NCBI GenBank assembly: GCA_027011205.1
Contig: JALVAL010000631.1
Coordinates: 1 to 45,444 of the forward strand
Source of the DNA: Gammaproteobacteria bacterium
GTDB taxonomy: Bacteria > Pseudomonadota > Gammaproteobacteria > GRL18
Reading direction: 5' to 3'
Length of the DNA stretch: 45,444 nucleotides
Positions 12,826-44,800 of the stretch are shown here, in pieces. The notes beneath the pieces were generated by a model that searched no databases, was not told where the DNA came from, and was given only the letters and a program-made list of their open reading frames with translations. The number at the start of each line of letters is the position of its first letter. Position 1 is the stretch's first letter. Both the position numbers and the translations under genes were made by a program.

Positions 12826-12847
12826 CTTCTTTCCTCATCTTACCTAC

Positions 12848-12876: not shown

Positions 12877-12881
12877 TGGCT

Positions 12882-17932: not shown

Positions 17933-17960
17933 GATTAACGTTGAATATTTAGGTAATAAA

Positions 17961-27313: not shown

Positions 27314-27335
27314 AAATGTAGGAGGAATTGAGATA

Positions 27336-27697: not shown

Positions 27698-27909
27698 CAA
27701 TGATGAAAATAATAATAACAATTGTTATGATAGCCTGTATGATATTTTTTATATTAAATGCCAATGTTATAATTACTAAGGTATTCGGCCCTGTTAAAAT
27801 GCCGTTTGAAGTAAAAGCCTGTATGGAACGCCATGCAAATATGATCCATTGTGATAAGCAGTATGATTATTGGTTTTCATGGTGTCACCATGAAAATAGA
27901 TATTTTTAA
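27694..27909 (+). CDS. Small membrane-anchored Cys/His-rich protein.
   Basis: The N-terminal hydrophobic segment is MMKIIITIVMIACMIFFILNANVII. The product is 71 aa. Confidence 0.45.
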   Translation: MTMMKIIITIVMIACMIFFILNANVIITKVFGPVKMPFEVKACMERHANMIHCDKQYDYWFSWCHHENRYF

Positions 27910-27928
27910 TATATGGAGAAGATTGAAA

Positions 27929-28405: not shown

Positions 28406-28846
28406 TCAGGAGCCGAAACAAGTATAAAACAAATGGTCTCCTACCTTATATAAGTATTCAATTTTTTTAGCCCACGAAGGATGTACATCAACCCCATGGT
28501 AGTGTGTGGGCTTTCTCTTTACCATGTCATTCAACATTCCTGTATAAACTGCATGAGCAATAAGACTGTTTTCTCTCCATATGTAATCAACTTCTCTTTT
28601 CCGATGAATGATTCTCATTATATTACTATCCTGAAAACAGGAGAATTGCGTTGGAGCAAGGATGATTTCTCGAAGATTTCTTCCCCAATTCCAATGCCCT
28701 GGATGTTTTGACCTTTCCATAGCACACATAGCAACTAATACACGTCCTTCCCAGGATTGGTCTTCTGCTTCTCCGACAATGAGCCCGGACAACAGTTCTA
28801 AATCACTCCATGTCTGTATTTCGTGCCTTATATTTATAACATTCAT
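28406..28846 (-). CDS. Endolysin, SleB-type cell wall hydrolase (Hydrolase_2 family).
   Basis: The motifs are LIVGEAEDQSWEGRVLVAMCAMERS and LAPTQFSCF. There is no signal peptide. It is the last gene of the leftward arm. Confidence 0.7.
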   Translation of the reverse strand: MNVINIRHEIQTWSDLELLSGLIVGEAEDQSWEGRVLVAMCAMERSKHPGHWNWGRNLREIILAPTQFSCFQDSNIMRIIHRKREVDYIWRENSLIAHAVYTGMLNDMVKRKPTHYHGVDVHPSWAKKIEYLYKVGDHLFYTCFGS

Positions 28847-30304: not shown

Positions 30305-31915
30305 TTATGCCGATGTGTAACTTGGATCGGCTTTTGGTGACAAGGTTACAGTCAAGTTTTCATCTTGGATCGTAAAATCCATATCTCCAGGTTCCACATA
30401 ACCTGGTCTGCCCCAGGCTATTGTACAATCAATCGGTGTTCCTGGAGTATGACCATCAACGTCATAGGAGCCATAAGCAATCGTTATTGCGTCGCTCCCC
30501 GTAATAGACACATCTTCTTGATCTGTGCCGTCTTCGTCCTGAAGCGGCACAGCATCATGCGTCCCGAAAGTGTCTTTATGGTAGATGCTGAAATGTCCTC
30601 CAACCAGAATGGACGGAGAACTTATAGTCAGGGCAACGATAGTCGGCCACTGGCGTACAGTACCACTGTGGTCAACAAGACGGAGGTCATTACGTTGTGC
30701 AGCGGGGTAATTAAGCAAATATGAATATACTGTGAAGACATCCCCACTGAATTCTGTAAGGATATTGTGTTTATCTCCCCGAATTGCGTCCCCAGTATTG
30801 TCACTGTTTATGTTGGTAGGTTGTCTGAGAAGGTAGTTAATCTTCTCGTGTATTGTCTGATGGGTTTTATGGTCTCCGTCTATATGACCGTCAAAATCGT
30901 AGGTTGTACCGTCAACATCACCTTGGTACAACCCGTCCGAATCTACATAGTATTTAATGTTTTGATAGTCAGCCCCATTAGCAATCTCTGTATCAGTGTG
31001 ATAAGGCGTCCCCGTTGACGGGTCGGCCAGTTTTGGGTCAATGGCGTTATTTGCTGAAACGGGGTATATTTCAGCGTACTGGAGATCGTGTGCTTCGAAA
31101 ACAATCGTTTTTCCAGGCTCGGCACACCGAGTGTACCATGTTCCCCTCTTATCATCTCCATCAGTATCATGAATAAGGACTAACTGGTTAATGTAACCAG
31201 TCATAACTGCCTCATTAGGGGCATTCATCTCTGGATCATTATAATACCAGAATGTCATTTGATCGGTCGAAGCATGAAGATTGCCTGTTGACCTAAGCAA
31301 CGCATACGCTTTAGTGTAGCTGGATGTTTCTGTTTCTCTGATTTCCAAGGCAGAATCCCTAATAGCATTTAGAGTATCTGAGTCGTGAGGCTCCCAGCCG
31401 TCCTTATTTGCCAGGCTTTTGGCCCTTGGCTCGATAGAGGTGAATACAGACGGATACTTGTCCAAGTCCGTATTATACCATTCGTCAACGCACCACGAGG
31501 CGAAAACCAGCCCTTGAACCCCATCAACAAAGCTCAACCCGTTGGCCTCTAAAAACTGATAAGTCTTTTTAAAAGCAAGGACGTTGATATCAGCCCCTGC
31601 GCTCTCGTCTGCGGAAGCATTGTCAACGTCCGTACAAGTAATGCTATGGGCTGACACCGAGGTAACATCGCCTCGGTAGCCCTCATTTGTACTGTTTGAC
31701 GTGTGACTGAGGGTTATTCTATCCCCAACAACAATTCCCCTGTTTACAATACCTCCGTTTTCCGAGGAGGCTGTAAAATCGGTAGATGTAGAGTTGATTG
31801 TGGTTGTTCCATTCCCATTATTGGTAATACTGATATCAGTACCGCCTTTATCAGCTATATGGAATTTTACATTTGTACCAAGAACAAGACTTGATTTGCT
31901 CGTTATTTTTGCCAT
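30305..31915 (-). CDS. Large late protein, probably a virion fiber or decoration component.
   Basis: It is 536 aa. Its N-terminal module is shared with the tail tube insertion (TINSTSTDF...). Its C-terminal motif TLSPKADPSYTSA is shared with the neighbouring gene. Confidence 0.6.
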   Translation of the reverse strand: MAKITSKSSLVLGTNVKFHIADKGGTDISITNNGNGTTTINSTSTDFTASSENGGIVNRGIVVGDRITLSHTSNSTNEGYRGDVTSVSAHSITCTDVDNASADESAGADINVLAFKKTYQFLEANGLSFVDGVQGLVFASWCVDEWYNTDLDKYPSVFTSIEPRAKSLANKDGWEPHDSDTLNAIRDSALEIRETETSSYTKAYALLRSTGNLHASTDQMTFWYYNDPEMNAPNEAVMTGYINQLVLIHDTDGDDKRGTWYTRCAEPGKTIVFEAHDLQYAEIYPVSANNAIDPKLADPSTGTPYHTDTEIANGADYQNIKYYVDSDGLYQGDVDGTTYDFDGHIDGDHKTHQTIHEKINYLLRQPTNINSDNTGDAIRGDKHNILTEFSGDVFTVYSYLLNYPAAQRNDLRLVDHSGTVRQWPTIVALTISSPSILVGGHFSIYHKDTFGTHDAVPLQDEDGTDQEDVSITGSDAITIAYGSYDVDGHTPGTPIDCTIAWGRPGYVEPGDMDFTIQDENLTVTLSPKADPSYTSA

Positions 31916-31927: not shown

Positions 31928-33505
31928 TTAACTATAACTCGGATCGGGCTTAGCAGTGACTGCTATGGTAGAATTGTTTGTATCCAAGGTGAAATTTACG
32001 GGATCAATTACATACCCAGGACACACAAACAATGCTCTTGCCGGATCATCAGACACATCATAGGTATATTCATATTCCCCACCTGTAACAGACGCTTCAT
32101 GGTCGAGGGTATATGCTCCTTGAACCACTCTGGCTTCTGTGTTTTCTGGCAACCCTGTAAAAGTTTTTGTTCGTTTGTTGTAAAGAATGGTATTTCCTCC
32201 GCCTGATTCATTTATCTTTGTCGGGTCAATCTCTGTTCCGTCCTCCTGATAAATCGTCAGAGTGCCTGCGCTATAATGCGTTATTTCCGAGGTGCAGTTA
32301 TCGAATGTATAGTTGCTCAGGTGAACCGTGTCGTCTCCAAGAGTAACGCCATTAAATGAGTAGAAGAGTTTGATATTTTTAGGCGTATTAAGAGATGAAA
32401 TCATGAAATATGTGTTGACGTTAAAAATACAGTCATCCATATTGGCGCCGTTTGCTGTGACCTCATCGCAGAAATTGAACGTCGCTCGGATATAATCAGC
32501 AGAACAGAATTTGAGGCTATGTGCCCCGTAAAGTGTAGATTGATTAACCAGGAACGTGCCTGCAACGGTATGGAAATCCATATCCCATGACACTAAATCT
32601 AGGTCTGCCACCCTGGTAGCATGGTTTGTCCACTTGAGCGTTGTATCGTCGCCGGTGTTGACGAACCCATGAAATTCGTCGCCTGTCGAACTGCTTACAT
32701 TAGAGCCGTCGTAATAGCTATGCGAGGCAAAGATAAACAGCCGTTTGTCTTCCAGCATATAAACAGATTGACCGGTATCGCCCAGGGAGAATTTACCGTT
32801 GAGGAAAAATACTCCATTGTACTCTTCAACGATACCCATACGACGAGATTTGTCTTCTGTATAATCAAGTATCCCTGTTATATCTATCGGGTCGCTTTCC
32901 GTTCCGCCTGCAAACTTGACCCCAGGGCCTTTGTGGAAAATATCTATCCAAAATTCGGGAGAATTTACTCCCGTTAGATTCGAACTAAACTTTGTAATGA
33001 AACCAACAGCCGTCACATCGGACAGGTCAACTGTCCCATTTGTGTTTATTGGAGTCATGCTGGATGGTTTGAACACGTGTCGAGTCCAGCCCGACCGTAG
33101 TGTATCTATCCCTCCCACATAATACTCATTATAGTTACAGGAAGAATCATTCAGAGAATCGCTTGATGTATTTTTAGAAAGAGTCCCAGTATAAATTCTG
33201 AGTCTCAACCCTCCGTTGGCAATCGTGTCAAGATTGCCGAAAATTTTATCCGAGATGTTATACCAACACCACAGATAGTCAGATGATAAATCCTGGCTGG
33301 ATGTAAACTCTATAGCAATTCCCGTAACCCAGGCAGCAGCAAACCCAGGCTTGTAAGCCCCCGCCTGAGAACCCTGCTTGACGATGCTTGTGCTTACAGA
33401 CACATCGCCCGTTGTCCCTCCTATTTCCCATAGGCGATCATCAAGGTTTGATGCCTCGAAATCATCAAGAACGGTTAATTCTTCTATAATGGTAGGAGTT
33501 GCCAT
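31928..33505 (-). CDS. Large late protein, probably a virion fiber or carbohydrate-binding component.
   Basis: It is 525 aa, has a GAGGAG SD, and ends in AVTAKPDPSYS. Confidence 0.6.
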   Translation of the reverse strand: MATPTIIEELTVLDDFEASNLDDRLWEIGGTTGDVSVSTSIVKQGSQAGAYKPGFAAAWVTGIAIEFTSSQDLSSDYLWCWYNISDKIFGNLDTIANGGLRLRIYTGTLSKNTSSDSLNDSSCNYNEYYVGGIDTLRSGWTRHVFKPSSMTPINTNGTVDLSDVTAVGFITKFSSNLTGVNSPEFWIDIFHKGPGVKFAGGTESDPIDITGILDYTEDKSRRMGIVEEYNGVFFLNGKFSLGDTGQSVYMLEDKRLFIFASHSYYDGSNVSSSTGDEFHGFVNTGDDTTLKWTNHATRVADLDLVSWDMDFHTVAGTFLVNQSTLYGAHSLKFCSADYIRATFNFCDEVTANGANMDDCIFNVNTYFMISSLNTPKNIKLFYSFNGVTLGDDTVHLSNYTFDNCTSEITHYSAGTLTIYQEDGTEIDPTKINESGGGNTILYNKRTKTFTGLPENTEARVVQGAYTLDHEASVTGGEYEYTYDVSDDPARALFVCPGYVIDPVNFTLDTNNSTIAVTAKPDPSYS

Positions 33506-33506: not shown

Positions 33507-33932
33507 TTACTCCTCGCCTGCTATCTTTGGCCCGCCTTCTACCTCGAAAATTAAGGCTATTCCCATACGAGTGTATGCGAACAGCTTTTCTTTGGATATT
33601 GTTCCGTTCGCTATCTCTGTACCAACATCAGAGATAGCTTGTTGTATCTGGCCTTGTATGATTTCAGCGTCCTTATTTTCTCGGAGGCAGAGGTATTTCA
33701 CAAATTCAGGCATGAAATCCTGTGTCGAGACAGAAATTACCTCATCATCGTATACAACGTGACCATCTTCGTCTGTCCCGTAGAGTTTCCCTGTGGCGTT
33801 TACAGCAAATTTGTCTGGATCGGATGTTGTATTTTTCTTACCTTGAGTAAATGCAAACTGCATTACGTGGAGTTTATCCAGCGTAATTGCTGGAATGGTT
33901 TTTGCTTCCGAGCTATCTATTTTGATTGCCAT
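33507..33932 (-). CDS. Hypothetical late protein.
   Basis: The 141-aa ORF is tightly coupled to both neighbours. Confidence 0.5.
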   Translation of the reverse strand: MAIKIDSSEAKTIPAITLDKLHVMQFAFTQGKKNTTSDPDKFAVNATGKLYGTDEDGHVVYDDEVISVSTQDFMPEFVKYLCLRENKDAEIIQGQIQQAISDVGTEIANGTISKEKLFAYTRMGIALIFEVEGGPKIAGEE

Positions 33933-34219
33933 TATTTCACCGCCTTTGCTGTTTCGATTAAAGCCTGGATTAAGGCTTTTAAGAAAACCTCTGTGTTGTT
34001 AGGCCCGTTTCCAAGGCCACCAGTCTGTACATCAACTGCTCCTGTCTTTGGATCAACATGAAATACAAGACCGTCCTGAACTTCCCTGTTCGAATCCACC
34101 TTAATCTCAGTTGTTGAATTAGCTGATGTAAATGTGTATCTGTATGTTGCTCCGCCGGAAAATGAAGCGCATCCAGAAATCAGCACACAAATACTCAGCA
34201 AGCTTAACAATCTCATCAT
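33932..34219 (-). CDS. Lipoprotein.
   Basis: The signal peptide carries a lipobox: MMRLLSLLSICVLISGC. Confidence 0.65.
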   Translation of the reverse strand: MMRLLSLLSICVLISGCASFSGGATYRYTFTSANSTTEIKVDSNREVQDGLVFHVDPKTGAVDVQTGGLGNGPNNTEVFLKALIQALIETAKAVK

Positions 34220-34635
34220 TGTGTCACCTCAATCTGGATATCAGGAGTAGAAACAAAACGGATATGAAGAACTGTTGCCGGCTCCCAGTCTTGTGTTGCA
34301 GGGGGCGAAGCCCATTCGCTTTTTTGCTCTGCGAGGTCGACTGCCCGAACCGTGCATTCAGCCTTGCCTCTTGTGACTGGGACTTTGCCAGACCACTCAA
34401 ACGTCTTAAAGTAGTGGCGGTTTGTGTCAGATATCTTTAGGTTTGGGTCATCCACAGGAACCCGAACAATACTGGCATTGTCGCCAGGCACACAAGATAT
34501 TTCGTACCTTGCAATATCTGGAGGGAGATCGTGTTCCCAGGCAAGGCCGATTAGCCTGCTTTCCACGCTTGCATCTGCGGCGAAAACCATAGAAACTTGA
34601 ATTAAACTGAGTAAAAGAAACCATATAATTCTCAT
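34216..34635 (-). CDS. Exported protein with a fibronectin-III-like domain.
   Basis: The signal peptide is MRIIWFLLLSLIQVSMVFA|AD. An FN3-like pattern follows: LAWEHDLPPDIARYEI. Confidence 0.55.
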   Translation of the reverse strand: MRIIWFLLLSLIQVSMVFAADASVESRLIGLAWEHDLPPDIARYEISCVPGDNASIVRVPVDDPNLKISDTNRHYFKTFEWSGKVPVTRGKAECTVRAVDLAEQKSEWASPPATQDWEPATVLHIRFVSTPDIQIEVTQ

Positions 34636-36281
34636 TTATCTACCTCCTTAATAAACATTCTTGAATCGCCAATATCAGGTCTGATTCTAAATTCATCTGC
34701 ACCAATGTCTGGCGTATCCACAATAGAGTCGCCGTCGATATCTTTAGCCCAATTAGGCCAAGGCTTGTGAATATCTGAGATTTTGACACCCGCATTACGG
34801 GCTGGAGATTGACGGGATATGTGATATCCCGTCAGAAGAGGGTCATCAGTTTTAGAATTTACGTCGTGTGAGGTTGCTGATTTCCATCCATTGAAATCGT
34901 GATATATGTGGTAATTGCTTTCGAATTTACTACTTCCATCAGGATAGTATAAATTATAATTTATATCATTATTGCCATCGTTTGAGTCAGTAAACCTATA
35001 AGCAATATGCTCACCAGTTGGATTGTACGATAAATTGTTCAAAAACCTAATATTAGCGATATTATGGCCTAAGTTAACATTATATTCGTAACCGCTAATA
35101 AAATTATTGACTATAGTGGTTGTTAGGTGAATATGGTCAAGAAAAAATCCCCAATCACCTTTATTCCCTTGCAACACATTGTATGCCACAAAGGATTCTG
35201 CGTGATTGCCATTGTTCGCCTCTTGCAAGGCTATACCATACGTTTCTACATCATTTAGGATGTTTCGTTTAATTTTTAAGCCCCTATAATGCGAATTAGG
35301 AGCACAATAACATACGATCCCTTTATAGCTTTTATCGGCATAATTTTCTACGATTACTACATTATCACCATTTTGTACTGAAACCAATTCTCCGTCTGCC
35401 AAAGAACCTGCTTCACTCCATTTGTAATTCGCATTATTTGTATAAAATGTGTTATAAAATTTATTATGTTTGATTGATACATTCCGGCTACGCTCAGGGC
35501 CGTCACCATGAGACGCAATAGTGACGTCTTGGGCTACACGGTTAAACACACACCGTTCCACTACAATATCGTTATTGTCAGTATTCCGTGCTTTAAGATG
35601 TATTCCTGCGGATGCGATATCATAAAAATAGCAATTTTTTACTTGTATATCACTTACTCCCGATGTTGAATCACTATGTACTCCATACACAACATTTCTA
35701 AACGATAAACCGCTGAAATGAAAATGTGAATGCCCCTGCAAATCAAACACAGCTCTCACCATTAACCGTTTAACATCATGATTATTAGGCGTTCCGCTTG
35801 ACGGTCTATAGTAAGTATCCGCTCCGTCATAATACCATACACCATCGTTCAGTGCCGTATTGGAGGCTTTCGCCTGATAAATACTGTCCTCTAAAAGAAA
35901 ACCTGTGTATACAGGACTTGTATATCTCCCATCTCCTAAAGATGTCCAAGAGCTAAAGCTGTCAACAACAGACATCTTAGGGCTTACTCCAAATAACGGC
36001 TTGATAATTATTGGGTGCTCAGCCGTTCCGTTTACGGTGACTCTGCTACGAGTGTTGGTGTCAGAACAAATGTAGACTGTGTCACCAGCCTGAACACCAC
36101 CAGAACCGTAAACAATGTAAACTAATTCTGCCCATGCACCAGACTGGCCATTAGCTGAAGCGCATTCGTGACTTGTACCGTCACCATTATGTGAACAGTT
36201 GGCATTTACATACCAATCAACCCCAAAAACAGAAGAAACTCCAAACACCAACATACATACTATTGCATATACGATTTTCAT
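34632..36281 (-). CDS. Signal-peptide right-handed beta-helix (pectate-lyase fold) protein, paralog A.
   Basis: The signal peptide is MKIVYAIVCMLVFGVSSVFG|VDWYV. The N-terminal motif is WYV..NCSHNGDGTS..C. Repeats rich in N/G/V/I fill the middle. The C-terminal motif is SPARNAGV.ISDIH....DIDGD...DTPDIGADEF. Confidence 0.7.
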   Translation of the reverse strand: MKIVYAIVCMLVFGVSSVFGVDWYVNANCSHNGDGTSHECASANGQSGAWAELVYIVYGSGGVQAGDTVYICSDTNTRSRVTVNGTAEHPIIIKPLFGVSPKMSVVDSFSSWTSLGDGRYTSPVYTGFLLEDSIYQAKASNTALNDGVWYYDGADTYYRPSSGTPNNHDVKRLMVRAVFDLQGHSHFHFSGLSFRNVVYGVHSDSTSGVSDIQVKNCYFYDIASAGIHLKARNTDNNDIVVERCVFNRVAQDVTIASHGDGPERSRNVSIKHNKFYNTFYTNNANYKWSEAGSLADGELVSVQNGDNVVIVENYADKSYKGIVCYCAPNSHYRGLKIKRNILNDVETYGIALQEANNGNHAESFVAYNVLQGNKGDWGFFLDHIHLTTTIVNNFISGYEYNVNLGHNIANIRFLNNLSYNPTGEHIAYRFTDSNDGNNDINYNLYYPDGSSKFESNYHIYHDFNGWKSATSHDVNSKTDDPLLTGYHISRQSPARNAGVKISDIHKPWPNWAKDIDGDSIVDTPDIGADEFRIRPDIGDSRMFIKEVDK

Positions 36282-36452
36282 TTATTTCTCCCTTTTGCCA
36301 AGCTGATACCCAATAGCTGTGCCTGTGGCGATCGAGCCTAAAGATAAAATAATATCTCGAATTAGTGGCGCTGCTTCCTTGGTTGGAGGGTGCCAAAGCA
36401 CGCCGAGTCCTAACAATGTCATGGCTAATATCACAAAATGCTTGTCCATCAT
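36282..36452 (-). CDS. Small two-segment membrane protein of 56 aa, absent from the ORF track, with holin-like architecture.
   Basis: Hand translation gives MMDKHFVILAMTLLGLGVLWHPPTKEAAPLIRDIILSLGSIATGTAIGYQLGKREK. The ATG follows the upstream TGA directly, and the stop TAA abuts the next ATG (36281). Confidence 0.5.
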   Translation of the reverse strand: MMDKHFVILAMTLLGLGVLWHPPTKEAAPLIRDIILSLGSIATGTAIGYQLGKREK

Positions 36453-38225
36453 TCACTCCTGTATTCCTATTGTGGAAAATGTAGATAGGGGTTCAATTGT
36501 GTTTATTCGTGACGAACCTCTGACAGGTCGTGCCATGAATTCATCAGCACCAATGTCTGGATTATTAATCACATATTGCAGGTCAATATCTCTTGCTGGG
36601 GAAGATTGATCGTGAATACCAGATATTTGAACTCCTGCATTGACTGCTGGAGAAGTTTTTGCAATATGAAAACCTAAGAGCATAGGATTGTCTGTTGAAG
36701 CATGACCAGACAGATCGATCTCTTGCGACGTTGTGGTACTATGCCCAGGATGTTCAAAGCCATAAATCAAATTATTAGAGGAATCGCTAATTACTTGATC
36801 TTGTACATTACTATCAACTGCCAATCCACCAATAGCACCATTAGCCGCCGTTAAAAGATTGTTTTTTATAATATAAATATCATCATAATTCCGACTTGCT
36901 CTCACACATTGCCTTGTGTGATCCAAACTGTCAGGCACAAAATCAGGAAAATTGCCGCAATCAACAAAAGAATTGTTATAGACTGTTACAGTGTCACCCG
37001 AACCCGTATTTTTAGCAGATAACCGCACGCCCTGCCCAACATGAACACCTACATTGTAATAAAATGTATTGTTTTCGGAACTATGATCCATATATGCCCT
37101 GGCGGTATTCTCGGCTATATTGTGATGAACTTTGCTATGACTCGCCCCTTCATCTAAATAATAACAGGACCCGTCTGGCCAATACTCACCATAATGATAA
37201 TCAGCACAATAGTTGTGCATTATTTCTAAGCCCGGATCAGGCTTAGTAGAATAATGATTCGACCAGTAAACTCCTCCTACAGATCTGGTGTATCCGTTGT
37301 GAAAAAGATAATTACGAAGGATTTTACAATCTTCAAAAACTCCATTAAAATATATAGGCACACACAGTATGTTTGACAACACATTTGAATCGATTATTAA
37401 ATTACTACTTGGGCGTGTGTCTGTTCCTGCACTTTTGATTCCATAAAACAATTGATCGAAACTACAGCCAGATATATGAACTTTCGATATAGGATAAGTA
37501 TTGGAAGAAACGTAGATTCCTACATAACTTTTATAGAACCTTATATTTTTGATTTTTGCATTAGTGATATTACGCAACCGGATAGTTGTGTTCTGTGCAG
37601 TCTGAAAATGGATCTCTCCATAATACGTGAACGGGTTAATTGATGAGGGAGAATAAATATAGAACCCATTAGGGTTTTCGCCAGATAGTGATTGATAGTC
37701 CCACTCCCCCCACTCATCTAATGCTTGGTGGGCTCCACCATTATGATATTGTCGCTGTTTTCCTGGTGTCCAATCCGCACCAAGTCCCAGAATGAAAGGA
37801 GGATTGCTCGCATAAGAGCTATCAGTTACGCAAAACCACACGTTTGTGTCGTGTAGGGTGCAAGTAGGTGGTGAGCTTTGATAATCATAATAATTGATAA
37901 TTATAGGATCTGAACCTGAACCGTAGGCCCCAAAGATTAAGCCATCTCCATCGGCAATGATCCGTTGGTGAGTGATATTATGCTTTGAACTCCAATCATC
38001 TATTGTGCCTCGCTTCCAATAAACATGTGTATTGTCAGTCGTTATGACCCAATTAGTGGGTGCTGTGTTATAAGCTCCAACTCCTCCTTCAGAAGTTGAA
38101 CATGTTTGAGCAGTTCCGTCACCATTATATTCACAAGAAGGGTTGATAAACACATCTATTGCTTCTGCATTACTGCAAAAACAAAACAACACAAACAAAT
38201 AGGATAAAATTATAGAACGTTTCAT
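36453..38225 (-). CDS. Signal-peptide right-handed beta-helix protein, paralog B.
   Basis: The signal peptide is MKRSIILSYLFVLFCFCSNAEA|IDVFI. The N-terminal motif is C.YNGDGTA..C and the C-terminal motif is SPAVNAGVQISGIHD...ARDIDLQYVINNPDIGADEF. Confidence 0.7.
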   Translation of the reverse strand: MKRSIILSYLFVLFCFCSNAEAIDVFINPSCEYNGDGTAQTCSTSEGGVGAYNTAPTNWVITTDNTHVYWKRGTIDDWSSKHNITHQRIIADGDGLIFGAYGSGSDPIIINYYDYQSSPPTCTLHDTNVWFCVTDSSYASNPPFILGLGADWTPGKQRQYHNGGAHQALDEWGEWDYQSLSGENPNGFYIYSPSSINPFTYYGEIHFQTAQNTTIRLRNITNAKIKNIRFYKSYVGIYVSSNTYPISKVHISGCSFDQLFYGIKSAGTDTRPSSNLIIDSNVLSNILCVPIYFNGVFEDCKILRNYLFHNGYTRSVGGVYWSNHYSTKPDPGLEIMHNYCADYHYGEYWPDGSCYYLDEGASHSKVHHNIAENTARAYMDHSSENNTFYYNVGVHVGQGVRLSAKNTGSGDTVTVYNNSFVDCGNFPDFVPDSLDHTRQCVRASRNYDDIYIIKNNLLTAANGAIGGLAVDSNVQDQVISDSSNNLIYGFEHPGHSTTTSQEIDLSGHASTDNPMLLGFHIAKTSPAVNAGVQISGIHDQSSPARDIDLQYVINNPDIGADEFMARPVRGSSRINTIEPLSTFSTIGIQE

Positions 38226-39637
38226 CTCGGAAGATCCTTTTCACGCCTTATTAAACCACTTTTAATTTTAGGAGGGATATGAAATTCATCACAGCCAATG
38301 TCCGGACTATTTACAATATATTGTAAATCTATATCGTTTTCAGGATAAGCCTTGTCATGGATACCGGAAATTGAAGTCCCTGAATTGATAGATGATGAAT
38401 GATAATTATCTATATGTCCATCTCCGTTCAAGAAAGGATTGCCTACAATCGAATGCGAGCCCATGCTTATGTTGTGCGTATTGTCCGACAAATTTCCAAA
38501 ATACAAATTGTAGTCATTGTCAATCGCTACATTTGACCACAATCCATAATCAGGGCTCCCGGCCATGATATTATTCTTAACCTCTATATTCGAAGAATCT
38601 CCAGATACATATATCCCATAACAACTATCTCCAGAGACATTGTCATAAAAGTTGAAAACTGTATTATTTATCACTCCAAGATCATGGCTTCTATTCGTTA
38701 CAGCAATCCCTCCACGATTAAGTCCGCTAACCATATTGTAACGAACGACTCCTGATGCGGAAGAAAGCCATATTCCATAATATCCATTCATGATACGATT
38801 ATGATGGATATTTTCGTCTGTTCCAGAAACATAAACAACATTGGAATGGGTAGTTTCTGTTCCGTAATTTTGACTTTTGAGCCAGTTGTATGAAATCGTT
38901 GCGTTATTCCCTTGTATAATAATACATTGTTTTGGTTCATAAAAACTACTTATGTCTATGTGGTTATACTTGATGATATAACCTGTATGACTGCCTGAGC
39001 ATTGAAGACCGTCCCCTCTTCCCGATGATCCGGAGTTTGTAATTCCAAAGATTGTATTATTTTCAAAGGTGAAATCGTTCCCTCGTTGATAAATCATATC
39101 GCCGGGGCCATTGTATATAACGGAATCCTTTATAGTATTGTGGTTCCCCCTTGAAATAATTAGGGATCTGGTATTATCCGTGCTCTGGAGGTCGTGGACT
39201 TCACAATGTATAACTTTATTGAAAGTGCCGTCTGTTTCGTCAGCAGCAGTTAAATATACATTTACATAATCGCTACCAAAAACCTCCAAATCCTTAATTA
39301 CCACATTGGTGGCGTGATGACCCGCCCCATCATACCACGCATAAGTCTTCAACGCAGCGTGATGACCGCTGAAGTCAATCTTGCCAACTCCGTCACCTGT
39401 AAGGGTTATGTTGCTATGTTGTATCCCGATATCATGAATAGGATAGAGCGTGTCACAAATATGAAGCGTGTCGCCATCTGACATATTATCCCAATTAATT
39501 CCTGTCCAGCCGTACCACGCATTATCGCAAGAAGTCCCGTCTTGCGATCCACTCCCTGTATTAGCCACATACCAATCACTTCCAAAAGCCGACAGATTAG
39601 TGAATAAGATTATAAAACAAAAACAAATAAAAAACAA
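38222..39637 (-). CDS. Right-handed beta-helix protein, paralog C. The annotated TTG start is doubtful; see the T-tract frame break at 39610-39675.
   Basis: The hydrophobic N-terminus FFICFCFIILFTNLSAFG|SDWYV is followed by DGTSCDNAW. The C-terminal motif is SGIHDKAYPENDIDLQYIVNSPDIGCDEF. Confidence 0.65.
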   Translation of the reverse strand: MFFICFCFIILFTNLSAFGSDWYVANTGSGSQDGTSCDNAWYGWTGINWDNMSDGDTLHICDTLYPIHDIGIQHSNITLTGDGVGKIDFSGHHAALKTYAWYDGAGHHATNVVIKDLEVFGSDYVNVYLTAADETDGTFNKVIHCEVHDLQSTDNTRSLIISRGNHNTIKDSVIYNGPGDMIYQRGNDFTFENNTIFGITNSGSSGRGDGLQCSGSHTGYIIKYNHIDISSFYEPKQCIIIQGNNATISYNWLKSQNYGTETTHSNVVYVSGTDENIHHNRIMNGYYGIWLSSASGVVRYNMVSGLNRGGIAVTNRSHDLGVINNTVFNFYDNVSGDSCYGIYVSGDSSNIEVKNNIMAGSPDYGLWSNVAIDNDYNLYFGNLSDNTHNISMGSHSIVGNPFLNGDGHIDNYHSSSINSGTSISGIHDKAYPENDIDLQYIVNSPDIGCDEFHIPPKIKSGLIRREKDLPR

Positions 39638-39671
39638 ATAAAAAACAATGATTTCATTATATGCAAATCCT

Positions 39672-40211
39672 CTACGGAATAACTCGCATTTTCACAGAGC
39701 CTGCAGTCGTGTCATTCAAATTCGTGAAGTACACGACAGACACTCTCTTGTCGTTAATGATCTTTAATTCATCAGCATCGTTCTCTGAATTACTCGCCTT
39801 CAATACAGCAGGATAAGGAGACACAGATGAATTTAATTGAACCATTATATCAACTGTGCCTAAATTATAGAATTTAATAGACAATGTTTCTGGATCAACA
39901 ATCACACTAACTGTACCACCAGCAGGGATGTCAATATCCTGATCATAAACCGAAAGTGGAGCGTAAGGCTCATCAGAAACTTTCAGCCATATGTCTGATC
40001 CGTAGATAGTGTCAAGAAGCAAATAAGTTTCAACCTCCTGTCCCGGCTGAACTGCTTTCTGACAAGCGTACGGCTCATATGTAGCATCCTTGTAACAAGT
40101 GTCTATAAAAGTTTGTTTCTGTCCACTGACATTTTGGTAAGTTCCTGCGTATGAAACAACACAAGAAAGGAGAAAAATTATCAAAGTTGTAACAGATATT
40201 ATTGTTCTCAT
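39672..40211 (-). CDS. Exported protein (signal peptide, possible lipobox LLSC).
   Basis: The N-terminus reads MRTIISVTTLIIFLLSCVVSYAG. The product is 179 aa and beta-rich. Confidence 0.55.
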   Translation of the reverse strand: MRTIISVTTLIIFLLSCVVSYAGTYQNVSGQKQTFIDTCYKDATYEPYACQKAVQPGQEVETYLLLDTIYGSDIWLKVSDEPYAPLSVYDQDIDIPAGGTVSVIVDPETLSIKFYNLGTVDIMVQLNSSVSPYPAVLKASNSENDADELKIINDKRVSVVYFTNLNDTTAGSVKMRVIP

Positions 40212-40214
40212 ATT

Positions 40215-40526
40215 CTATGAGCCTCCTTGAAGTAATGACAATATAGTGTTTTGATGTGTTCGATATTCTTCTAAATTCTGATCTATTCTCTTCTCTAACT
40301 GACTAACGAGAACATCTAACTTGTCTGACAATTTATCAACACTCTGTACAACAAGTTTTGTTTTCTCGTCATTTATCTGTCTGACAAGATTACAATCTGT
40401 TTTCTTCATAAACTCCTCCTCAAGTTTTACAACAGAACGCCTAATAAAGAACCAAGCCAAAGCTCCTGCAGACGCACTTCCACCAGCTCCTCCAATAACC
40501 AGTGCATCCAAAACAGAAAAGTCCAT
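40215..40526 (-). CDS. Membrane-anchored coiled-coil protein.
   Basis: The start at 40526 forms an ATGA overlap with the fiber stop. MDFSVLDALVIGGAGGSASAGALAWFFIRR is a TM segment, followed by a heptad-like helix. Confidence 0.5.
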   Translation of the reverse strand: MDFSVLDALVIGGAGGSASAGALAWFFIRRSVVKLEEEFMKKTDCNLVRQINDEKTKLVVQSVDKLSDKLDVLVSQLEKRIDQNLEEYRTHQNTILSLLQGGS

Positions 40527-41830
40527 CACACCACACTCCAATTGCTCCCATCAAAACACAACCTGACCACACCGTAGTTGGTGCTGATTGTGAAAGATGA
40601 AGCTCCGTCAATAGTAGCATCTCCATGAGGATTAACCACTATGTTGTTTGTTCCCGCATTTCCCGAAGCATCCTTGATAAGAACCTCATGACCAGGCCAC
40701 TGAGCCTCAGGAGTCATATCAATGGAAATCCCTGCCGAACTAACATCAGCCATAATCACCTCATCCAACTGTCTCACACTGTAGCTGTTTGAAGTGTTGA
40801 TAGGCGAAATTACAGGCCGATGAAGCATAAAAGCAGGCGGATAGGCCAGATTATCAATTCCTTTGTAAGGAGCATAAGCATATCCGGTCACCCATACATT
40901 CGGAATCCCGTTATGTATTCCGAATTGAGTAATAGACAAATCTCCGTCCGCTTCAATCTGTTTCACTTGGTCAACATAAACACGCACTTTGTCCGATGCC
41001 ATTGCTACGGAGATCAAATATTCCTGGTCCTGAAGAAAGTTGTAAAGGGCTTGAGTAGTTTCGGTTCCGATTTTGAGGGTGATAGCAGAGAAGGTAGAGT
41101 TGAAAAACAACTCAAAAGCATCAGTCCATAATATTCTCCCTGATTCCCTGGCCGATGACGCCATAGGGATACAACGAATCCCAAAGTTCATCTTATAGCT
41201 TTTAGACAAATTCCAGACCAGATTACAATCGTATCTCTTGTTCTCTTTGGTAGAAAAAGGGGTAACGTGAGATTTGGGTTCTACTTGAATGTGAGCCGCC
41301 CATTTCCCTGAGCCCAGAACTTTGAGCTTGTAGGTTGTAGAGGCGGAAAGGGTTATGTTTGCAGGGCTATTGGTGATGGTTTCTTCCAAGGTCGCTCCCT
41401 GGTATATTTCCAAGGTCGCATCGCCTTCAAACGACACAATGTGATTGGTCTCGCTTCCTGTAGTAAAATTAACCGACACATCTGACGAACCGTCTGGGAT
41501 AGAGATTTTCTTTGTCCCCATAACCCGGTCAAAGATAGCGGTTGTCGGCGAACCCGTATATGTCCAATCGGAAGGAGAAAAAGACTCAGCCGAAGGAATA
41601 AGATTATCAGTTTCTTCAAACGCAGGCAGCCCATAAACCCCGTCTCGCACTCTTCCCAACGTGTAGGGTGGTAATGTTCCTGTGACCTCGTCGAATCTCA
41701 ACACTCCTTCCGGAGGTACAATTTGGGAGTGAAACAGAAAATCTGAGTCGCCCCAATTTGTGTTTACATCCCTGTCCCAGTTCATTTGGTTAGTTTGTAT
41801 TGTAGCAAATCCGTAATGTTCTGTTGACAT
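40526..41830 (-). CDS. Tail fiber / receptor-binding protein.
   Basis: It is 434 aa, lies immediately after the hub gene and has an AGGAGG SD. The C-terminal pattern LIKDASGNAGTNNIVVNPHGDATIDGASSFTISTNYGVVRL is common in phage fiber tips. Confidence 0.6.
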   Translation of the reverse strand: MSTEHYGFATIQTNQMNWDRDVNTNWGDSDFLFHSQIVPPEGVLRFDEVTGTLPPYTLGRVRDGVYGLPAFEETDNLIPSAESFSPSDWTYTGSPTTAIFDRVMGTKKISIPDGSSDVSVNFTTGSETNHIVSFEGDATLEIYQGATLEETITNSPANITLSASTTYKLKVLGSGKWAAHIQVEPKSHVTPFSTKENKRYDCNLVWNLSKSYKMNFGIRCIPMASSARESGRILWTDAFELFFNSTFSAITLKIGTETTQALYNFLQDQEYLISVAMASDKVRVYVDQVKQIEADGDLSITQFGIHNGIPNVWVTGYAYAPYKGIDNLAYPPAFMLHRPVISPINTSNSYSVRQLDEVIMADVSSAGISIDMTPEAQWPGHEVLIKDASGNAGTNNIVVNPHGDATIDGASSFTISTNYGVVRLCFDGSNWSVV

Positions 41831-41841: not shown

Positions 41842-44800
41842 CTAATCCACCGGAACATAAGCCCTGTAGTCCCCGTAGTATATTACCACGTCCGTGGGCT
41901 TATAGTCCAATTCTGCCTCAACCGTTGAATTCCAATCGCTCCCATCTATAGTCATTTTCAACAAATCATAATTGATCTGAGGAGCTTGTCCGCCGGGATA
42001 TGTCCCCGCCCCGAACCCCCTGATAAGAGGGGCAACAATCCATTTTCCTTTCCTCTGATATACACGGCCCCCTATCCCATAGGATATATCGTTTCCGAGG
42101 TATGATTCGTCTGACATTTGGTTCCCGTACATGACTTGGGCGTGAATATCATACGACAGTCCAAGCCCGTCTTCTGGAACGGGATCGTTTCCAGGGAAAG
42201 AAAGGGAAAAGAGCTGTTGGCTGCTATCTTTTATTCTTGTTCCGTCATATCCCCTCTGAAGGTATGTTCCATAAAGCCCTGGGGCCAAGGCTATTAACTC
42301 CTTATTGTCTGTAATATAATATCCGGTCTCATACCCTTCAATTCTCACCATCGTTTCATTATCAAGCGAAAGAGAGGTTGACGTAGAAATTTGTGTAACG
42401 AAGAAAGAAGATTGATTTCCGTCACCAAAGGTAGCAGTAACCATAACCCAAGCAATATCCGGGCCATAGTCCGCCGAAACATACCATTTGTCAAACGAGT
42501 TAGCAAAATACGCCAAAGTCAAGGTCGGCGACGGGGCTGGCGGAGCCTCCGGATAATCCACCGGGGAAATTTGTTGCGAAAGTATATCGTGAAAAGGTTG
42601 CGACTCCTCATAACCAGAGTAATTCAACAAGCCCGATTCGTCCACTTGAAGATTCATAACCCGGTAATAACTGTCTTTGAGGTTTGTGATTATCCTCACC
42701 CGGTCCCCCACGTGGAAACGCTCCCAGCTTTGGAGTTTGAAGGTGTTGCGGTTATACACCGTGCTAGCAGCTATATACCGGGCCATCATACGGGCCACCA
42801 GCCCATCGGGAGCAATGCTTTGGTTGAGTCTTGAATCTTCCCAATTCAGATTACTTCCGATCATTACCTCATAGGTTTCAACTCTGGTTTTAAGCCCCTT
42901 GTTTTCAAAGTTCGTAGTATCAAAATATGTAACGGAGGCTCGAATATTTGTTTTAATTCCATCCATTATATCCAATGTCCCTTCAATAACATTGGATGAA
43001 TCTACATTATAACTCCCGGTAGTATAAGGCCAATCCTGTATATAGCCTCCTGAAATTTCATAACGCTTTCCTGAATGAATTACGTGATCGAACGGTTCAT
43101 CTATGAAATAGCCGGTTCCGTCTTGTTGAACATTAACCGGATAATCCTTTACATTATACAACGCCCCGTCATCGTCGGGTTTTATGTACTTTGCGGTCAA
43201 CTGACCGTCGTCCACATAAAAGAGGATAGGCATTTGCTTGCTCAAGGTTTTGAGCAACTCTTGGAAAGGAACGGGGTTGTCTATATAAACATTCCAATAC
43301 CAGCCATCGGAGCGAGCTTGTTGAAAAGCGGAAGAGATAGCCGATGTGTTAATGTTCAAAGAGATATTGCGCCTCTGTTCAAAATCATTAACAACAATAT
43401 CCGATACAGGATCAGGATAAGGATATTTCATCCAATGCCCAACTGGTATTCTATATCCATCATCCCAAAAAGACCTTCCTGACCCCATAAGGGTGAAAAG
43501 AGGCCGTGAATCAATATTCCAAAGACTGAACTCTCTCAAAGGCAGATTTCCATCATGAGCATTGTCAACTATGCTCTTATAGTAAAACAACTGAACTGTA
43601 TTACAAACAGTCAAAGTGGTTCCTTTAGGAAGTCCACCCTGAACTGCTTTAGGGTCGAAAAACAAATTGGGCTCGGTCGCTCCGCTGTCTATTGAAGGGC
43701 ACCCCACTTCAGCAAAATAAATCTTCTTGCTGTTCGGAACCCAATCTGTCTGACTGTTTTGAGAGCCGTCTGGATTGTAATTGTAATGATTGTGAGAAAC
43801 CCAATATTTAAGGTTCTTGGCAGCAAAAGCAGGATCGGTTATCGGGGCTGTTCCTCCAACATCGTCTTTCCAATCATCATAATCAGTTATGTAATAATCC
43901 CAATCCCTTCCCTTGGTCCAACCGTCGTAATAATCCTGATAAGCCAAGGTATGGTGTTCTGTCACGCCGTAATAAGCATCGATGAAAACCTCGTCTTGAA
44001 AAGCGAAAAGATCGTCCAACGGTCTCCACCAATACCCGTCATCATCCTTGAATCCGTTTACTTCGCTCCAGTCAGCCGAATACCCAACTAAAACATCGCC
44101 CCAGCCCGCATCGGAAAACTTATTTCTCACCTCTTCCACAATATCCATCAAATACGGAATTGAGGTAAAATGAAACGTCCCGTGAGCATCGGTATAAGTT
44201 CTCACATCGCTCCGATGAGGAGAAGCGTATGTTTTTTGTTGGTTGATTTTTACCAATTCAGAGCAAGCTATGAATCGTTTTGGTTTGAGATTATTATTTA
44301 TGAGAAGGTTAGCATAATAGAGACACTGACTCTTAACCTGGGTCAATAATTCACCTATAGTTTTATGCTCTGGCAACAAGTTGCCTCGCCAAGGCTTTTC
44401 TCCCGGAGGATCAGCAACCTCCATAAAGGAATAGAAAGAAAATTCAAACCCTTGAGAAATAGCATACTGAATCCCTTGAATAAGCCCGTCGTCTGCTGGC
44501 GTTCCTCCATAACAAGGGATTCCGTCTGAATCAAAATAAATCTGCTTTATCTGAGGTTCTCCGTATTGATTGAGAAATTGAACACCCCCTACAGTCGGAT
44601 TATAGTCTGTACAACCTTCCGGGAATCTGGTCTCATACGACACCACTGTGTCTTCGCCTTGACGAACAACCCCGGTATGATATTCCACCCCCCCCGCATT
44701 AACAGGCTTGACCTTCAATTTCATTATTTCTGTATTTTTAGTCTCGGTTCCTACTTGGATGGTGAATCCCATTATTTCTTCATACTTAGGTATTACAAGA

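Follow-up and report, generated by a model that had tools for sequence, protein, structure and literature searches.

A recurrent phage gene module of signal-peptide-bearing beta-helix paralogs with a proposed role at the host envelope

Three paralogous genes in the late operon of an uncultured tailed phage encode right-handed beta-helix proteins (A, B and C) of a family that carries Sec signal peptides. On balance, we take them to be non-virion glycan-processing enzymes, exported late in infection and acting on the host surface polysaccharide in egress or receptor destruction. As judged by sequence comparison, the real core of the locus is a portable module made up of a p179-family exported protein, a small transmembrane (TM) protein and between one and three beta-helix genes with signal peptides. 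The window, i.e. the whole 45,444-nt stretch of DNA analysed, is by a modest preference read as a complete ~45.3-kb siphovirus-type phage, with the eight-gene block forming a composite, "envelope-acting" stretch of its late operon.

The block occupies positions 33932-40526 on the minus strand of this 45-kb genome and consists of eight consecutive co-oriented ORFs, all found where the first-pass annotation had placed them (Table 1). Neighbouring genes either touch or share 1-4 nt, and both Shine-Dalgarno motifs and start/stop coupling support the start codons; such motifs lie directly 5' of the hydrophobic N-termini of p179, B, p56, A, p139 and p95, and B begins in an ATGA overlap with the stop of C. 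The block sits among tail and lysis genes. The order GTA-TIM gene, 434-aa gene, block is kept at loci L001 and L004. The p108 ORF spans 40215-40541, and its true start is likely at 40526, where an ATG shares bases with the stop codon (TGA) of the 434-aa gene.

Table 1. Features of the block and of related genes in the window (a slash indicates the predicted signal peptidase site)
Feature	Positions	Strand	Properties
Endolysin, SleB-like Hydrolase_2	28406..28846	-	Pfam PF07486, E=4e-11; no signal peptide or SAR domain
p95	33932..34219	-	lipoprotein, lipobox ISGC, +2 residue Ala, conserved amphipathic C-terminal helix
p139	34216..34635	-	signal peptide (VFA/ADAS), ~120-aa domain, two Cys
Paralog A, 549 aa	34632..36281	-	signal peptide MKIVYAIVCMLVFGVSSVFG/VDWYV (site VFG/VDWY); beta-helix glycan-enzyme fold
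p56, 56 aa	36282..36452	-	two TM segments, charged C-terminus (...QLGKREK)
Paralog B, 590 aa	36453..38225	-	signal peptide MKRSIILSYLFVLFCFCSNAEA/IDVF (site AEA/IDVF); beta-helix membership by profile homology
Paralog C, 471 aa as ORF	38222..39637	-	right-handed beta-helix protein
Disrupted C start	39627..39657	-	ATG 39657; TTGTTTTTTAT twice, 39648-39638 and 39637-39627
p179	39672..40211	-	Sec signal peptide (...SYA/GTYQN), ~157-aa mature domain, no fold assigned
p108, 103 aa from ATG	40215..40526	-	TM segment, RR, charged helical domain, one Cys
434-aa tail/baseplate-type protein	40526..41830	-	PHROG baseplate, E=8.7e-9; immediately precedes the block
GTA-TIM host-specificity protein	41842-45345		GTA_TIM Pfam, E=2.6e-24; precedes the 434-aa gene; runs across the window junction

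Signal peptides were called with a heuristic of our own, based on K/R in the n-region, an h-region and a small-x-small site. By this measure, all three elements are found in p179, B, A and p139. Strongly hydrophobic N-termini occur in seven of the eight block genes and in 3 of the 50 other genes of the window (Fisher p=3e-6), a non-random clustering. The earlier claim that export or membrane N-termini run through the whole block thus holds under the heuristic, the segment of p108 (21 residues, Gly/Ala-rich) being a weak one.

True paralogy links A, B and C, which share the right-handed beta-helix glycan-enzyme fold. This relationship, proposed on first reading, is borne out by two methods: BLASTP between the C-terminal modules gives pairwise E values of 8e-18, 9e-16 and 8e-9, and hhalign aligns the B and A subfamilies over their full length (99.8% probability, E=3e-30, 512 columns) and C with both of them across its C-terminal ~180 columns (~99% probability). 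The N-terminal motif quoted in the first-pass annotation is only partly common to the three, since B has DVFI and C does not have the first Cys; the N-terminal Cys pair is conserved in A and B. C matches Pfam Beta_helix (E=6.9e-9) and NosD (E=2.3e-8), B has no direct Pfam match, and 7 of 16 family members match Beta_helix (best E=4.5e-24). The AlphaFold2 model of A has a pLDDT of 54 overall and of 70-86 over core residues 180-420. Foldseek, run on this model, retrieved only right-handed beta-helix carbohydrate-active enzymes, depolymerases and tailspikes (3vst at E=3e-6), RbmB (9ozl) having the best target coverage among the structural neighbours with a target-normalised TM-score of 0.58. The fold search that had been recommended therefore places A, as modelled, in the beta-helix carbohydrate-enzyme class; the model of B is poor (pLDDT 42), and with models this weak the groove and the substrate class are unreadable. 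None of the three proteins has a sequence match in 50,697 GenBank phage records.

In this genome, the signal-peptide start of C is broken by an 11-nt tandem duplication. A Shine-Dalgarno motif, AGAGGA, lies 10 nt upstream of the ATG at 39657, which the duplication has put out of frame with C, and the annotated ORF opens at a TTG that no Shine-Dalgarno motif precedes. Deletion of one 11-nt copy in silico brings MKSLFFICFCFIILFTNLSAFG/SDWYV and C back into one frame. P0003, the public call of this gene, starts at codon 24, after the hydrophobic segment.

Orthologs sharing 43-77% identity with the window's proteins keep signal peptides, even though the sequence of these peptides diverges. The B ortholog P0002 (77% identity) carries MKKILVLIFCLWSSVAFG/TDIY, and a second B ortholog, the B-like gene of L004, carries ...VWA/TDWY; the C ortholog P0004 (51% identity) has an intact MKLIFTLVFCLWSSLTFA/ADWYV (...TFA/ADWYV), and the A ortholog P0006 (43-45% identity) combines Pfam Beta_helix with a signal peptide ending ...VGA/TDWYV. 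Further away, 117 of the 146 best distant relatives (about 80%) have signal-peptide-like N-termini by the heuristic. Relatives devoid of a signal peptide, such as P0010, P0015 and a 528-aa protein of L006, begin exactly at the predicted mature "xxYYV" N-terminus, as MA(S/T)(Y/W)YV. The beta-helix cap motif stands at the very start of the mature protein, which leaves no room for a virion-adaptor domain. Since all three beta-helix proteins bear secretion signals, they are probably sent to the host envelope rather than built into the particle.

The search of related genomes that had been suggested recovered the pairing of p179-family and beta-helix genes at L001, L003, L004 and L005; the cassette recurs in unrelated environmental phages. 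Homologs of p179 with signal peptides (BLASTP E=1e-17 to 1e-42) lie directly upstream of beta-helix genes at all four loci, L005 being a Mu-like prophage, which marks p179, by sequence homology, as a conserved partner gene just upstream of the beta-helix genes; the protein has no match in Pfam, PDB, PHROG or GenBank phages. Likewise, p56 is kept beside the beta-helix genes at L001 (90% identity) and L004 (54% identity, E=2e-12). Similar small two-TM genes occur in the L005 module, where a 48-aa gene lies between the p179 homolog and the beta-helix gene, and in the L006 lysis cassette (hhalign probability ≤24%, not significant). By analogy, p56 may be a holin or a module-specific membrane protein. 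The remaining small exported protein, p139, has no Pfam match, so that its former label of "FN3-like" is without Pfam support; a small signal-peptide protein of L007 (9701-10048) that follows the beta-helix gene gives a non-significant E=0.21 against it.

Members of the family occur in five phage contexts, and lysis genes adjoin them in three of the five. At L007, a lysozyme gene is followed by two genes and then a signal-peptide beta-helix gene, while at L009 seven genes in a row encode signal-peptide proteins, three or more of the beta-helix type, ahead of genes for a TM plus helical protein, a GH108 endolysin and a lipoprotein. At L005, the module is located away from the tail and structural genes. 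A bacterial member, P0035, adjoins a locus with Wzy, Wzx, glycosyltransferases and an epimerase.

The first-pass annotation had offered a secreted battery as one possible role for the block of eight exported or membrane proteins. Export of the beta-helix proteins agrees with the conserved signal peptides and the missing adaptor, but the single battery does not stand. The L004 homolog of p95 (17843-18145; 45% identity, E=4e-28) lies between a Hydrolase_2 endolysin gene, whose stop its start overlaps, and a gene for a TM plus helical protein, and at L006 proteins of the p108 and p56 architectures directly precede the endolysin. With such lysis-linked counterparts, up to three of the eight proteins are more simply read as lysis-type proteins. 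From its homology, p95 would be lysis-associated and o-spanin-like. By its architecture, which also adjoins the endolysin at L004 (18231-18545), L006 (16009-16359) and L009 (12069-12284), p108 resembles a lysis-cassette protein of the i-spanin or antiholin kind; homology to these TM plus helical proteins is not significant (E=0.068; hhalign probability 4.7%), and its acidic N-terminus together with the RR after the TM segment predicts, by the positive-inside rule, a cytoplasmic helical domain, a poor fit to an i-spanin. Beside the window's own endolysin, no holin or spanin is encoded on the same strand, and the small neighbours have neither a TM segment nor a lipobox.

The following is our inference on how the proteins are exported, what they catalyse and on which substrate, and what the phage gains. 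The core module would comprise p179, p56 and the triplicated C, B and A genes with their divergent cores, with p139 as a further small exported protein. Its products would be made late in infection and translocated via the host Sec system, signal peptidase I cutting the beta-helix proteins just before the conserved "xxYYV/DWYV" N-terminus. They would then fold in the oxidising extracytoplasmic space and stay out of the virion, whose assembly is cytoplasmic. Their target would be the host's own surface polysaccharide (capsule, EPS, O-antigen or sheath), which they would bind and most likely cleave or modify, either during its periplasmic transit or at the surface, the three divergent cores corresponding to three specificities. 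Two points speak against this: a Sec signal by itself brings a protein no further than the periplasm if the host is diderm, and the start of C is disrupted in this genome. Progeny would leave a glycan-embedded cell more easily, and receptor glycans on the infected cell and on debris would be destroyed; together these effects should reduce both progeny loss and superinfection. Interleaved with the module would be the lysis-type proteins: p95 as an outer-membrane lipoprotein, p108 as a TM plus helical protein and p56 perhaps as a holin. The mechanism has precedents: the periplasmic beta-helix lyase VexL, an export substrate of Sec, degrades capsule on its way through the periplasm, a cytosolic form of the enzyme failing to do so (PMC6003464), and phage phiNIT1 makes non-structural capsule-lytic enzymes (PMC6966330).

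The proteins could instead be exported non-enzymes, glycan-binding or adhesion proteins ("NosD-like") that alter how the infected host sticks to its neighbours or to the matrix. We give this a minor share of the probability. The 16-member family alignment has no invariant acidic or basic core residue, conservation being confined to an Asn ladder, the C-terminal motif and some of the glycines, which means that a common catalytic site is not demonstrated and that the proteins could be binders; the NosD match of C and the small exported partners p179 and p139, which could be binding modules, point the same way, and Narayanan et al. (2026; PMC13452462) propose this role for viral NosD-like proteins. 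However, the structural neighbours are nearly all enzymes (GH120, GH136, GH110, PL6, RbmB, phage depolymerases), the bacterial member lies beside a polysaccharide synthesis and export locus, as known processing enzymes do, and expression from the late operon near lysis genes would leave little time for an adhesion benefit.

Rather less likely is a Sec-dependent accessory lysis, by which beta-helix "exolysins" would build up beyond the membrane and, on triggering by p56, break through a layer other than peptidoglycan (sheath, capsule or S-layer glycan) alongside the endolysin. Secreted endolysins such as Lys44 set a precedent (PMC6116005). The pairing of p56 with beta-helix genes in three phages fits this idea, as do the two-TM gene of the L005 module, with no endolysin in the L005 stretch examined, and the beta-helix genes placed directly after the lysis genes at L007 and before them at L009. 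Against it, an ordinary cytoplasmic Hydrolase_2 endolysin is encoded 5 kb away in the window, p56 is assigned as a holin by architecture only, and no family member has any likeness to a peptidoglycan hydrolase.

We consider it unlikely, a little more so than accessory lysis, that the module serves as a moron or in superinfection exclusion, chiefly altering or stripping a surface glycan and thereby keeping other phages from adsorbing to an infected or lysogenic cell. The Mu-like prophage does carry the module outside its structural genes, and the window's lipoprotein adjoins receptor-binding-type genes, an arrangement known from Llp/Cor-type exclusion. Soluble depolymerase makes cells insensitive to capsule-dependent phages (PMC6966330). 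Yet the module of the window is part of the late operon, with no sign of a separate promoter, the window yielded no lysogeny genes, PADLOC gave no match, and the L004 homolog of p95 is coupled to an endolysin gene rather than to a receptor-binding one. Finally, it is very improbable that the three paralogs are tailspikes or tail fibres of the usual virion kind, with hydrophobic N-termini that are start-codon artefacts or uncleaved segments: their tail-fibre-region position between the 434-aa baseplate-type gene and p141/p525/p536, their tailspike fold, the public call of C past its hydrophobic segment and the relatives devoid of signal peptides would suit this, but for A and B the upstream starts are pinned down by Shine-Dalgarno motifs and start/stop overlap, signal peptides are conserved in orthologs and most relatives, no adaptor domain separates signal peptide from beta-helix cap, the Mu-like prophage has its module away from any tail gene, and signal-peptide-free tail candidates are already present (p434, p525, p536, p217).

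The glycan-processing enzymes that we favour share with the virion tailspike depolymerases (P22, Sf6, Klebsiella capsule) the right-handed parallel beta-helix (Foldseek 2vbk, 9k4a, 7w1c, 8bke), the location in the tail-fibre region and the presence of several paralogs with divergent, specificity-type cores. They differ from them by cleavable-type Sec signal peptides, by having no N-terminal virion-attachment domain and by the occurrence of the module away from tail genes at L005; the statement that phage depolymerases normally have no Sec signals is true of the characterised ones. Periplasmic or secreted bacterial enzymes (VexL, RbmB, AlgG/AlgL-type, WceF) have the same combination of signal peptide and beta-helix and, in VexL, disulfide-stabilised termini, which we count as a likeness; they work on capsule or EPS that the producing cell itself makes, and have no detectable sequence similarity to A, B or C, whose genes are phage-encoded and lie in a late lytic operon. 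PghP and LevP of phiNIT1, which are capsule- or EPS-degrading, non-virion and produced late (PMC6966330), resemble A, B and C as proposed here, but have other folds and are described as freed at the burst, not as Sec-exported during infection. Lysis proteins (Rz/Rz1 spanins, class II holins, Lys44) are resembled by the lipoprotein p95, by p108 with its TM, helical domain and Cys, and by the two-TM p56; no match to a sequence family was found, p95 is not proline-rich, and the three genes lie scattered in the window, at 5-11 kb from its endolysin. Also close is the report of Narayanan et al. (2026, ISME J; PMC13452462) on NosD/CASH-type beta-helix proteins of sediment viruses, one of them with a signal peptide, for which roles in lysis or egress and activity during infection were discussed. 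Phage-encoded NosD/CASH-type beta-helix proteins in environmental viromes were thus already known; distinctive here are triplicated genes, a signal peptide that is a conserved family trait, the conserved exported p179-family partner with small TM proteins, and a cassette that recurs near lysis genes across phage types.

Eight minus-strand ORFs lie between a 434-aa baseplate-type tail gene and the signal-free late genes p141, p525, p536 and p217 (pNN gives the length in aa), each abutting its neighbour or overlapping it by 1-4 nt. In transcription order they are p108, p179, the beta-helix paralogs C and B (471 and 590 aa), p56, the third paralog A (549 aa), p139 and p95. Start and stop codons overlap between p108 (ATG at 40526) and the 434-aa gene, and between B and C (as ATGA). 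For p179, B, p56, A, p139 and p95, a Shine-Dalgarno (SD) motif directly precedes the hydrophobic N-terminus. Signal peptides were scored by a simple rule-based scan for a positive n-region, a hydrophobic h-region of about 10-15 residues and small residues at -3/-1. By this rule, p179 (SYA/GTYQN, the slash marking the predicted cleavage), B (AEA/IDVF), A (VFG/VDWY), p139 (VFA/ADAS) and all orthologs carry the features of Sec substrates cleaved by signal peptidase I. The p56 protein has two hydrophobic segments and p108 a weaker Gly/Ala-rich one. Seven of the eight block genes have strongly hydrophobic N-termini, versus 3 of the 50 other genes (Fisher p=3e-6). Layout, SD-backed starts, signals and this enrichment thus bear out the run of eight exported or membrane-type proteins recorded in the first-pass annotation. 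The lipoprotein named there is also borne out: p95 has the lipobox ISGC at residues 14-17, matching the signal peptidase II pattern [LVI][ASTVI][GAS]C at the end of the h-region, and its homolog in the related phage locus L004 has LTGC. The description of p139 as FN3-like finds no profile support, as no Pfam family matches at E≤0.1.

The block sits in an uncultured phage's genome, whose first 126 bases recur at its end, and which is therefore circularly assembled, complete and about 45.3 kb long. The late operon, on the minus strand, comprises genes for terminase, portal, major capsid, tape measure, a GTA-TIM host-specificity protein and the 434-aa protein; the plus-strand replication module encodes DNA polymerase, helicases and PurZ-like and DatZ-like proteins, the last two suggesting a 2-aminoadenine (Z-base) genome. 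No integrase or repressor was found among the window ORFs scanned, and no tRNA in the window. A promoter scan performed at chance level (46 found, 46.5 expected) and so gave no evidence that the block is transcribed separately. The GTA-TIM gene runs across the window junction; its product, 1167 aa as listed, gains about 190 N-terminal residues past the junction, including a Gly-rich hydrophobic stretch (compare the 1325-aa homolog in L001). The signal-free 536-aa and 525-aa proteins, whose gene order is kept in L004, have a common C-terminal motif (…SPKADPSYTSA and …TAKPDPSYS); they are likely to be the true fibres or receptor-binding proteins, built with a common C-terminal module.

Coordinates of features in the window and in loci carrying relatives of the block genes
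Contig	Feature	Position	Strand	Remark
Window	End overlap	1-126; 45300-45425		126 bp
Window	PurZ-like adenylosuccinate-synthetase homolog	24493-25443	+	phrog_1211 (2-aminooxy adenylosuccinate synthetase), Pfam Adenylsucc_synt
Window	DatZ-like dATP triphosphohydrolase	25708-26148	+	phrog_7076
Window	81-aa protein	27279-27524	+	two TM segments, charged tail
Window	71-aa protein	27694-27909	+	one TM segment
Window	dCMP deaminase	27851-28405		
Window	Endolysin	28406-28846	-	cytoplasmic, SleB-like Hydrolase_2
Window	536-aa protein	30305-31915	-	signal-free
Window	525-aa protein	31928-33505	-	signal-free
Window	Eight-gene block	33932-40526	-	p108 to p95
Window	11-nt tandem duplication	39627-39657	-	TTGTTTTTTAT twice, in signal-peptide coding start of C
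Window	GTA-TIM tail gene	41842-45444 + 1-548	-	
L001	P0002, ortholog of B	6803-8536		
L001	CxC/CxxC protein	8536-8886		C-terminal TM anchor
L003	P0004, ortholog of C	558-1937		
L006	Signal-less beta-helix member	10375-11961		
L007	CxC/CxxC protein	6649-6957		C-terminal TM anchor
L009 (Logan SRR27710291)	Seven signal-peptide late genes	1794-13386		805, 158, 383, 377, 568, 201, 886 aa

The export signals of the beta-helix proteins are best judged from their relatives. Close orthologs are rare, one for each paralog in 5.8 billion clusters: P0002 for B (77% identity), P0004 for C (51%) and P0006 for A (43%). Each of them, like a B-like gene in L004, has its own distinct canonical signal peptide, ending just before the mature start DWYV/DIYI. 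An exhaustive HMM search retrieved 1,273 relatives at E≤1e-3, and 117 of the best 146 of these have a rule-based signal peptide, several more obvious ones being missed by the rule. The few relatives without a signal begin exactly at MA(S/T)(Y/W)YV, that is, at the mature N-terminus, indicating that the hydrophobic segment is a separable, conserved N-terminal extension. On this comparative evidence the signal peptides of the beta-helix proteins appear to be real. A Cys pair kept near the N-termini of A and B would be consistent with folding outside the cytoplasm. Signal-less members beginning at the mature N-terminus include the relatives P0010 and P0015 and one protein in L006, whose gene lies two genes downstream of a signal-peptide-bearing member; the family may thus switch between exported and possibly virion-bound forms.

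Paralog C has a broken start. Its ORF begins at a TTG without SD motif, and an SD-preceded ATG 20 nt upstream is put in another frame by the doubling of the 11-mer. A single copy would give a product beginning MKSLFFICFCFIILFTNLSAFG/SDWYV, and only in that case does C show the features of a Sec signal peptide; the public gene call puts the start at codon 24. The duplication could reflect pseudogenisation, slipped-strand on/off switching or an error of assembly.

The paralogy of A, B and C, proposed in the first pass from motifs, is upheld by two kinds of comparison. BLASTP joins the three via their C-terminal ~80-130 residues (E=8e-18, 9e-16 and 8e-9). In profile-profile comparisons homology between the A and B subfamilies extends over the full length (99.8% probability, E=3e-30, 512 columns), and C has its last ~180 columns in common with both (~99% probability). 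As to the N-terminal motif quoted as common to all three, part of it is indeed common, and the full motif does not extend to every paralog. The DNA identity of the C-terminal module is only 69-79% among the paralogs, meaning that the paralogy is old and ruling out recent gene conversion between these modules. The window copies of B and C carry the C-terminal variant DIDLQY(V/I)(I/V)N, unlike their orthologs P0002 and P0004, which carry the A-type variant …WP(D/N)WA(K/H)DIDGD(S/A)…; this indicates that C-terminal modules have been shuffled among paralogs.

A right-handed parallel beta-helix is supported as the fold class. Paralog C matches Pfam Beta_helix (PF13229, E=6.9e-9) and NosD (PF05048, E=2.3e-8), and 7 of 16 aligned family members match Beta_helix (best E=4.5e-24). 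A and B have no direct match to either family; hhalign and HMM homology tie them to the matching members. For A, AF2 gives a modest model (pLDDT 54 overall, 70-86 in the core), whose structural matches in PDB and BFVD are exclusively right-handed beta-helix proteins: carbohydrate-active enzymes, phage depolymerases and tailspikes. The model of B (pLDDT 42) has a short-strand pattern only and is too poor to use. Among the 50 best matches listed, those of A scatter over GH120, GH136, GH110, PL6, RbmB and others, with query-normalised TM-scores of at most 0.43. No acidic or basic core residue is invariant across the 16 aligned members, and neither catalytic residues, a groove nor a CAZy family emerged for A, B or C; no particular substrate or catalytic mechanism is supported. 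PDB sequence searches with A, B, C and the p179 profile yielded nothing beyond noise. For the eight block proteins, PHROGs, NCBIfam and PADLOC offered no useful match bar a sub-threshold choice-of-anchor-Q match on B. The structural matches of A speak for enzymes acting on glycans, and the variable core leaves room for the rival reading that the beta-helix proteins are non-enzymatic adhesion proteins.

Comparison of three related phage loci and six loci with more distant members shows that the eight block genes are not one unit; the core is a portable module. Homologs of p179 (E=1e-17 to 1e-42), all with signal peptides predicted to be cleaved before a conserved GTYxN, lie immediately upstream of beta-helix genes at four loci, namely the related siphoviruses L001, L003 and L004, and L005, a Mu-like prophage (GCA_027015955.1) whose genes include MuA/B, GemA, Gam and a Mu portal. 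In L005 a 48-aa 2-TM gene separates the two, and p56 is conserved beside beta-helix genes in L001 and L004. The survey of distant members covered six contigs of at least 18 kb, five of them phage; the sixth, L010, is bacterial, its member adjoining a Wzy/Wzx/glycosyltransferase/epimerase locus. Besides L005, the phages are a lambda-J-type siphovirus (L006), in which the beta-helix gene comes after gpJ and a small protein with a signal peptide; a phage with a P22-type portal (L007), in which lysozyme and two further genes are followed by a beta-helix gene with a signal peptide and then by a small signal-peptide protein; one with an SU10-type portal (L008); and L009. The last is a more extreme case than the window, with seven consecutive signal-peptide late proteins, at least three of them of beta-helix type (805, 377 and 568 aa) and the 886-aa one so called from its N-terminal motif only. 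Similarity of p179 to the ~150-aa signal-peptide proteins of L006, L007 and L009, and of p139 to p115 of L007, has low probability, leaving an architectural analogy. The small proteins with N-terminal CxC/CxxC, a helical domain and a C-terminal TM anchor in L001 and L007 adjoin beta-helix or lysis genes in two unrelated phages and are weakly similar (hhalign probability 5%). Among 50,697 GenBank phage records, A, B, C and p179 (tblastn) and the block region (megablast) had no match, and no close relatives were found in IMG/VR (queried with A, the 434-aa protein and the GTA-TIM alignment), JGI metagenome contigs or GTDB genomes.

Of the small proteins, p95, p108 and perhaps p56 most plausibly belong to a lysis cassette that has become dispersed, given the arrangements in L004, L006 and L009 and a window endolysin with no TM or lipoprotein gene beside it. 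The p95 protein is 45% identical (E=4e-28) to a lipoprotein in L004 whose gene start overlaps the endolysin stop and which is followed by an N-terminal-TM plus helical protein of p108 architecture. In L006 the endolysin is directly preceded by a homolog of this TM plus helical protein (E=1e-12) and by a 2-TM protein of 66 aa, and in L009 the genes after the seven-gene run encode, in a row, a TM plus helical protein, a GH108 endolysin and a lipoprotein. The assignment of p95, from sequence, is firm; p108 and p56 are putative members by architecture, since similarity of p108 to the TM plus helical proteins and of p56 to the small TM proteins of L005 and L006 (hhalign 24% for the L006 cassette protein) has low probability. 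The resemblance of p95 to the L009 lipoprotein is likewise of low probability and was treated as architectural analogy. p108 and p95 do not form an adjacent, overlapping or embedded spanin pair, being 6 kb from each other and 5-11 kb from the endolysin, and the acidic N-terminus of p108 with RR after its TM segment would favour an N-out/C-in orientation, which argues against a classical i-spanin topology. A Cys in its helical domain recurs in the L004 and L006 analogs. p56 has class II holin-like size, two hydrophobic segments and a KREK tail, and does not adjoin the endolysin. Two very hydrophobic proteins of 81 and 71 aa, at the end of the early operon and facing the endolysin, are alternative holin candidates. 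A second rival reading is that the exported proteins form a Sec-dependent accessory lysis system.

What A, B, C and their partners do is inferred throughout, from export and activity to substrate and benefit. The beta-helix proteins and their small partners would be late proteins that are exported by Sec and stay out of the virion. Their target would be the surface polysaccharide of the host itself, attacked in transit or in place, which could ease escape from a glycan-embedded cell and strip receptor glycans from the infected cell and debris. Superinfection exclusion is a third rival. Plain tailspikes are the weakest alternative: tailspikes are among the structural matches of A, and a virion tailspike should have a particle-attachment domain and no secretion signal, whereas in A, B and C the beta-helix cap directly follows the signal-like segment with no adaptor domain between. 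A more far-reaching form of the export reading is one we advance tentatively, thinking it somewhat unlikely as a whole: that a p179-family protein, a small TM protein and one or more signal-peptide beta-helix enzymes make up a mobile, phage-specific "fourth step" egress and receptor-destroying cassette, Sec-exported late, that dismantles the host extracellular glycan from inside, and that has spread horizontally among unrelated environmental phages (GTA-tail siphoviruses, Mu-like phages, possibly others) while being absent from all cultured phage genomes searched.

The data point to a conserved phage enzyme family routed via the host secretion system, linked to lysis genes and found in unrelated phages, and suggest a distinct, largely unstudied strategy, the late remodelling of host surface glycans from within. 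If confirmed, it would be a new class in the phage lysis and egress toolkit, would help explain escape from matrix-embedded hosts, provided these metagenome-derived phages infect such hosts, and would offer monomeric, naturally secreted glycan-active enzymes for biotechnology. The beta-helix fold and phage depolymerases are well known; the latter are usually regarded as components of the virion that serve in entry, and non-virion depolymerases are known. What is new is the signal peptide as a conserved trait of phage-borne members, the triplication of the beta-helix genes, the dedicated exported partner (the p179 family) with small TM proteins, and a module that turns up again in unrelated types of phage, often next to lysis genes. 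In 2026, "NosD-like" beta-helix genes, one with a signal peptide, were described in sediment viruses with similar hypotheses (PMC13452462), and these now gain a concrete, testable genomic context. Each step of the proposed mechanism is plausible in view of known systems: VexL is a periplasmic, Sec-exported beta-helix lyase that degrades capsule in transit and is inactive in its cytosolic form (PMC6003464), phage phiNIT1 makes non-structural capsule-lytic enzymes (PMC6966330), and secreted endolysins exist (PMC6116005).
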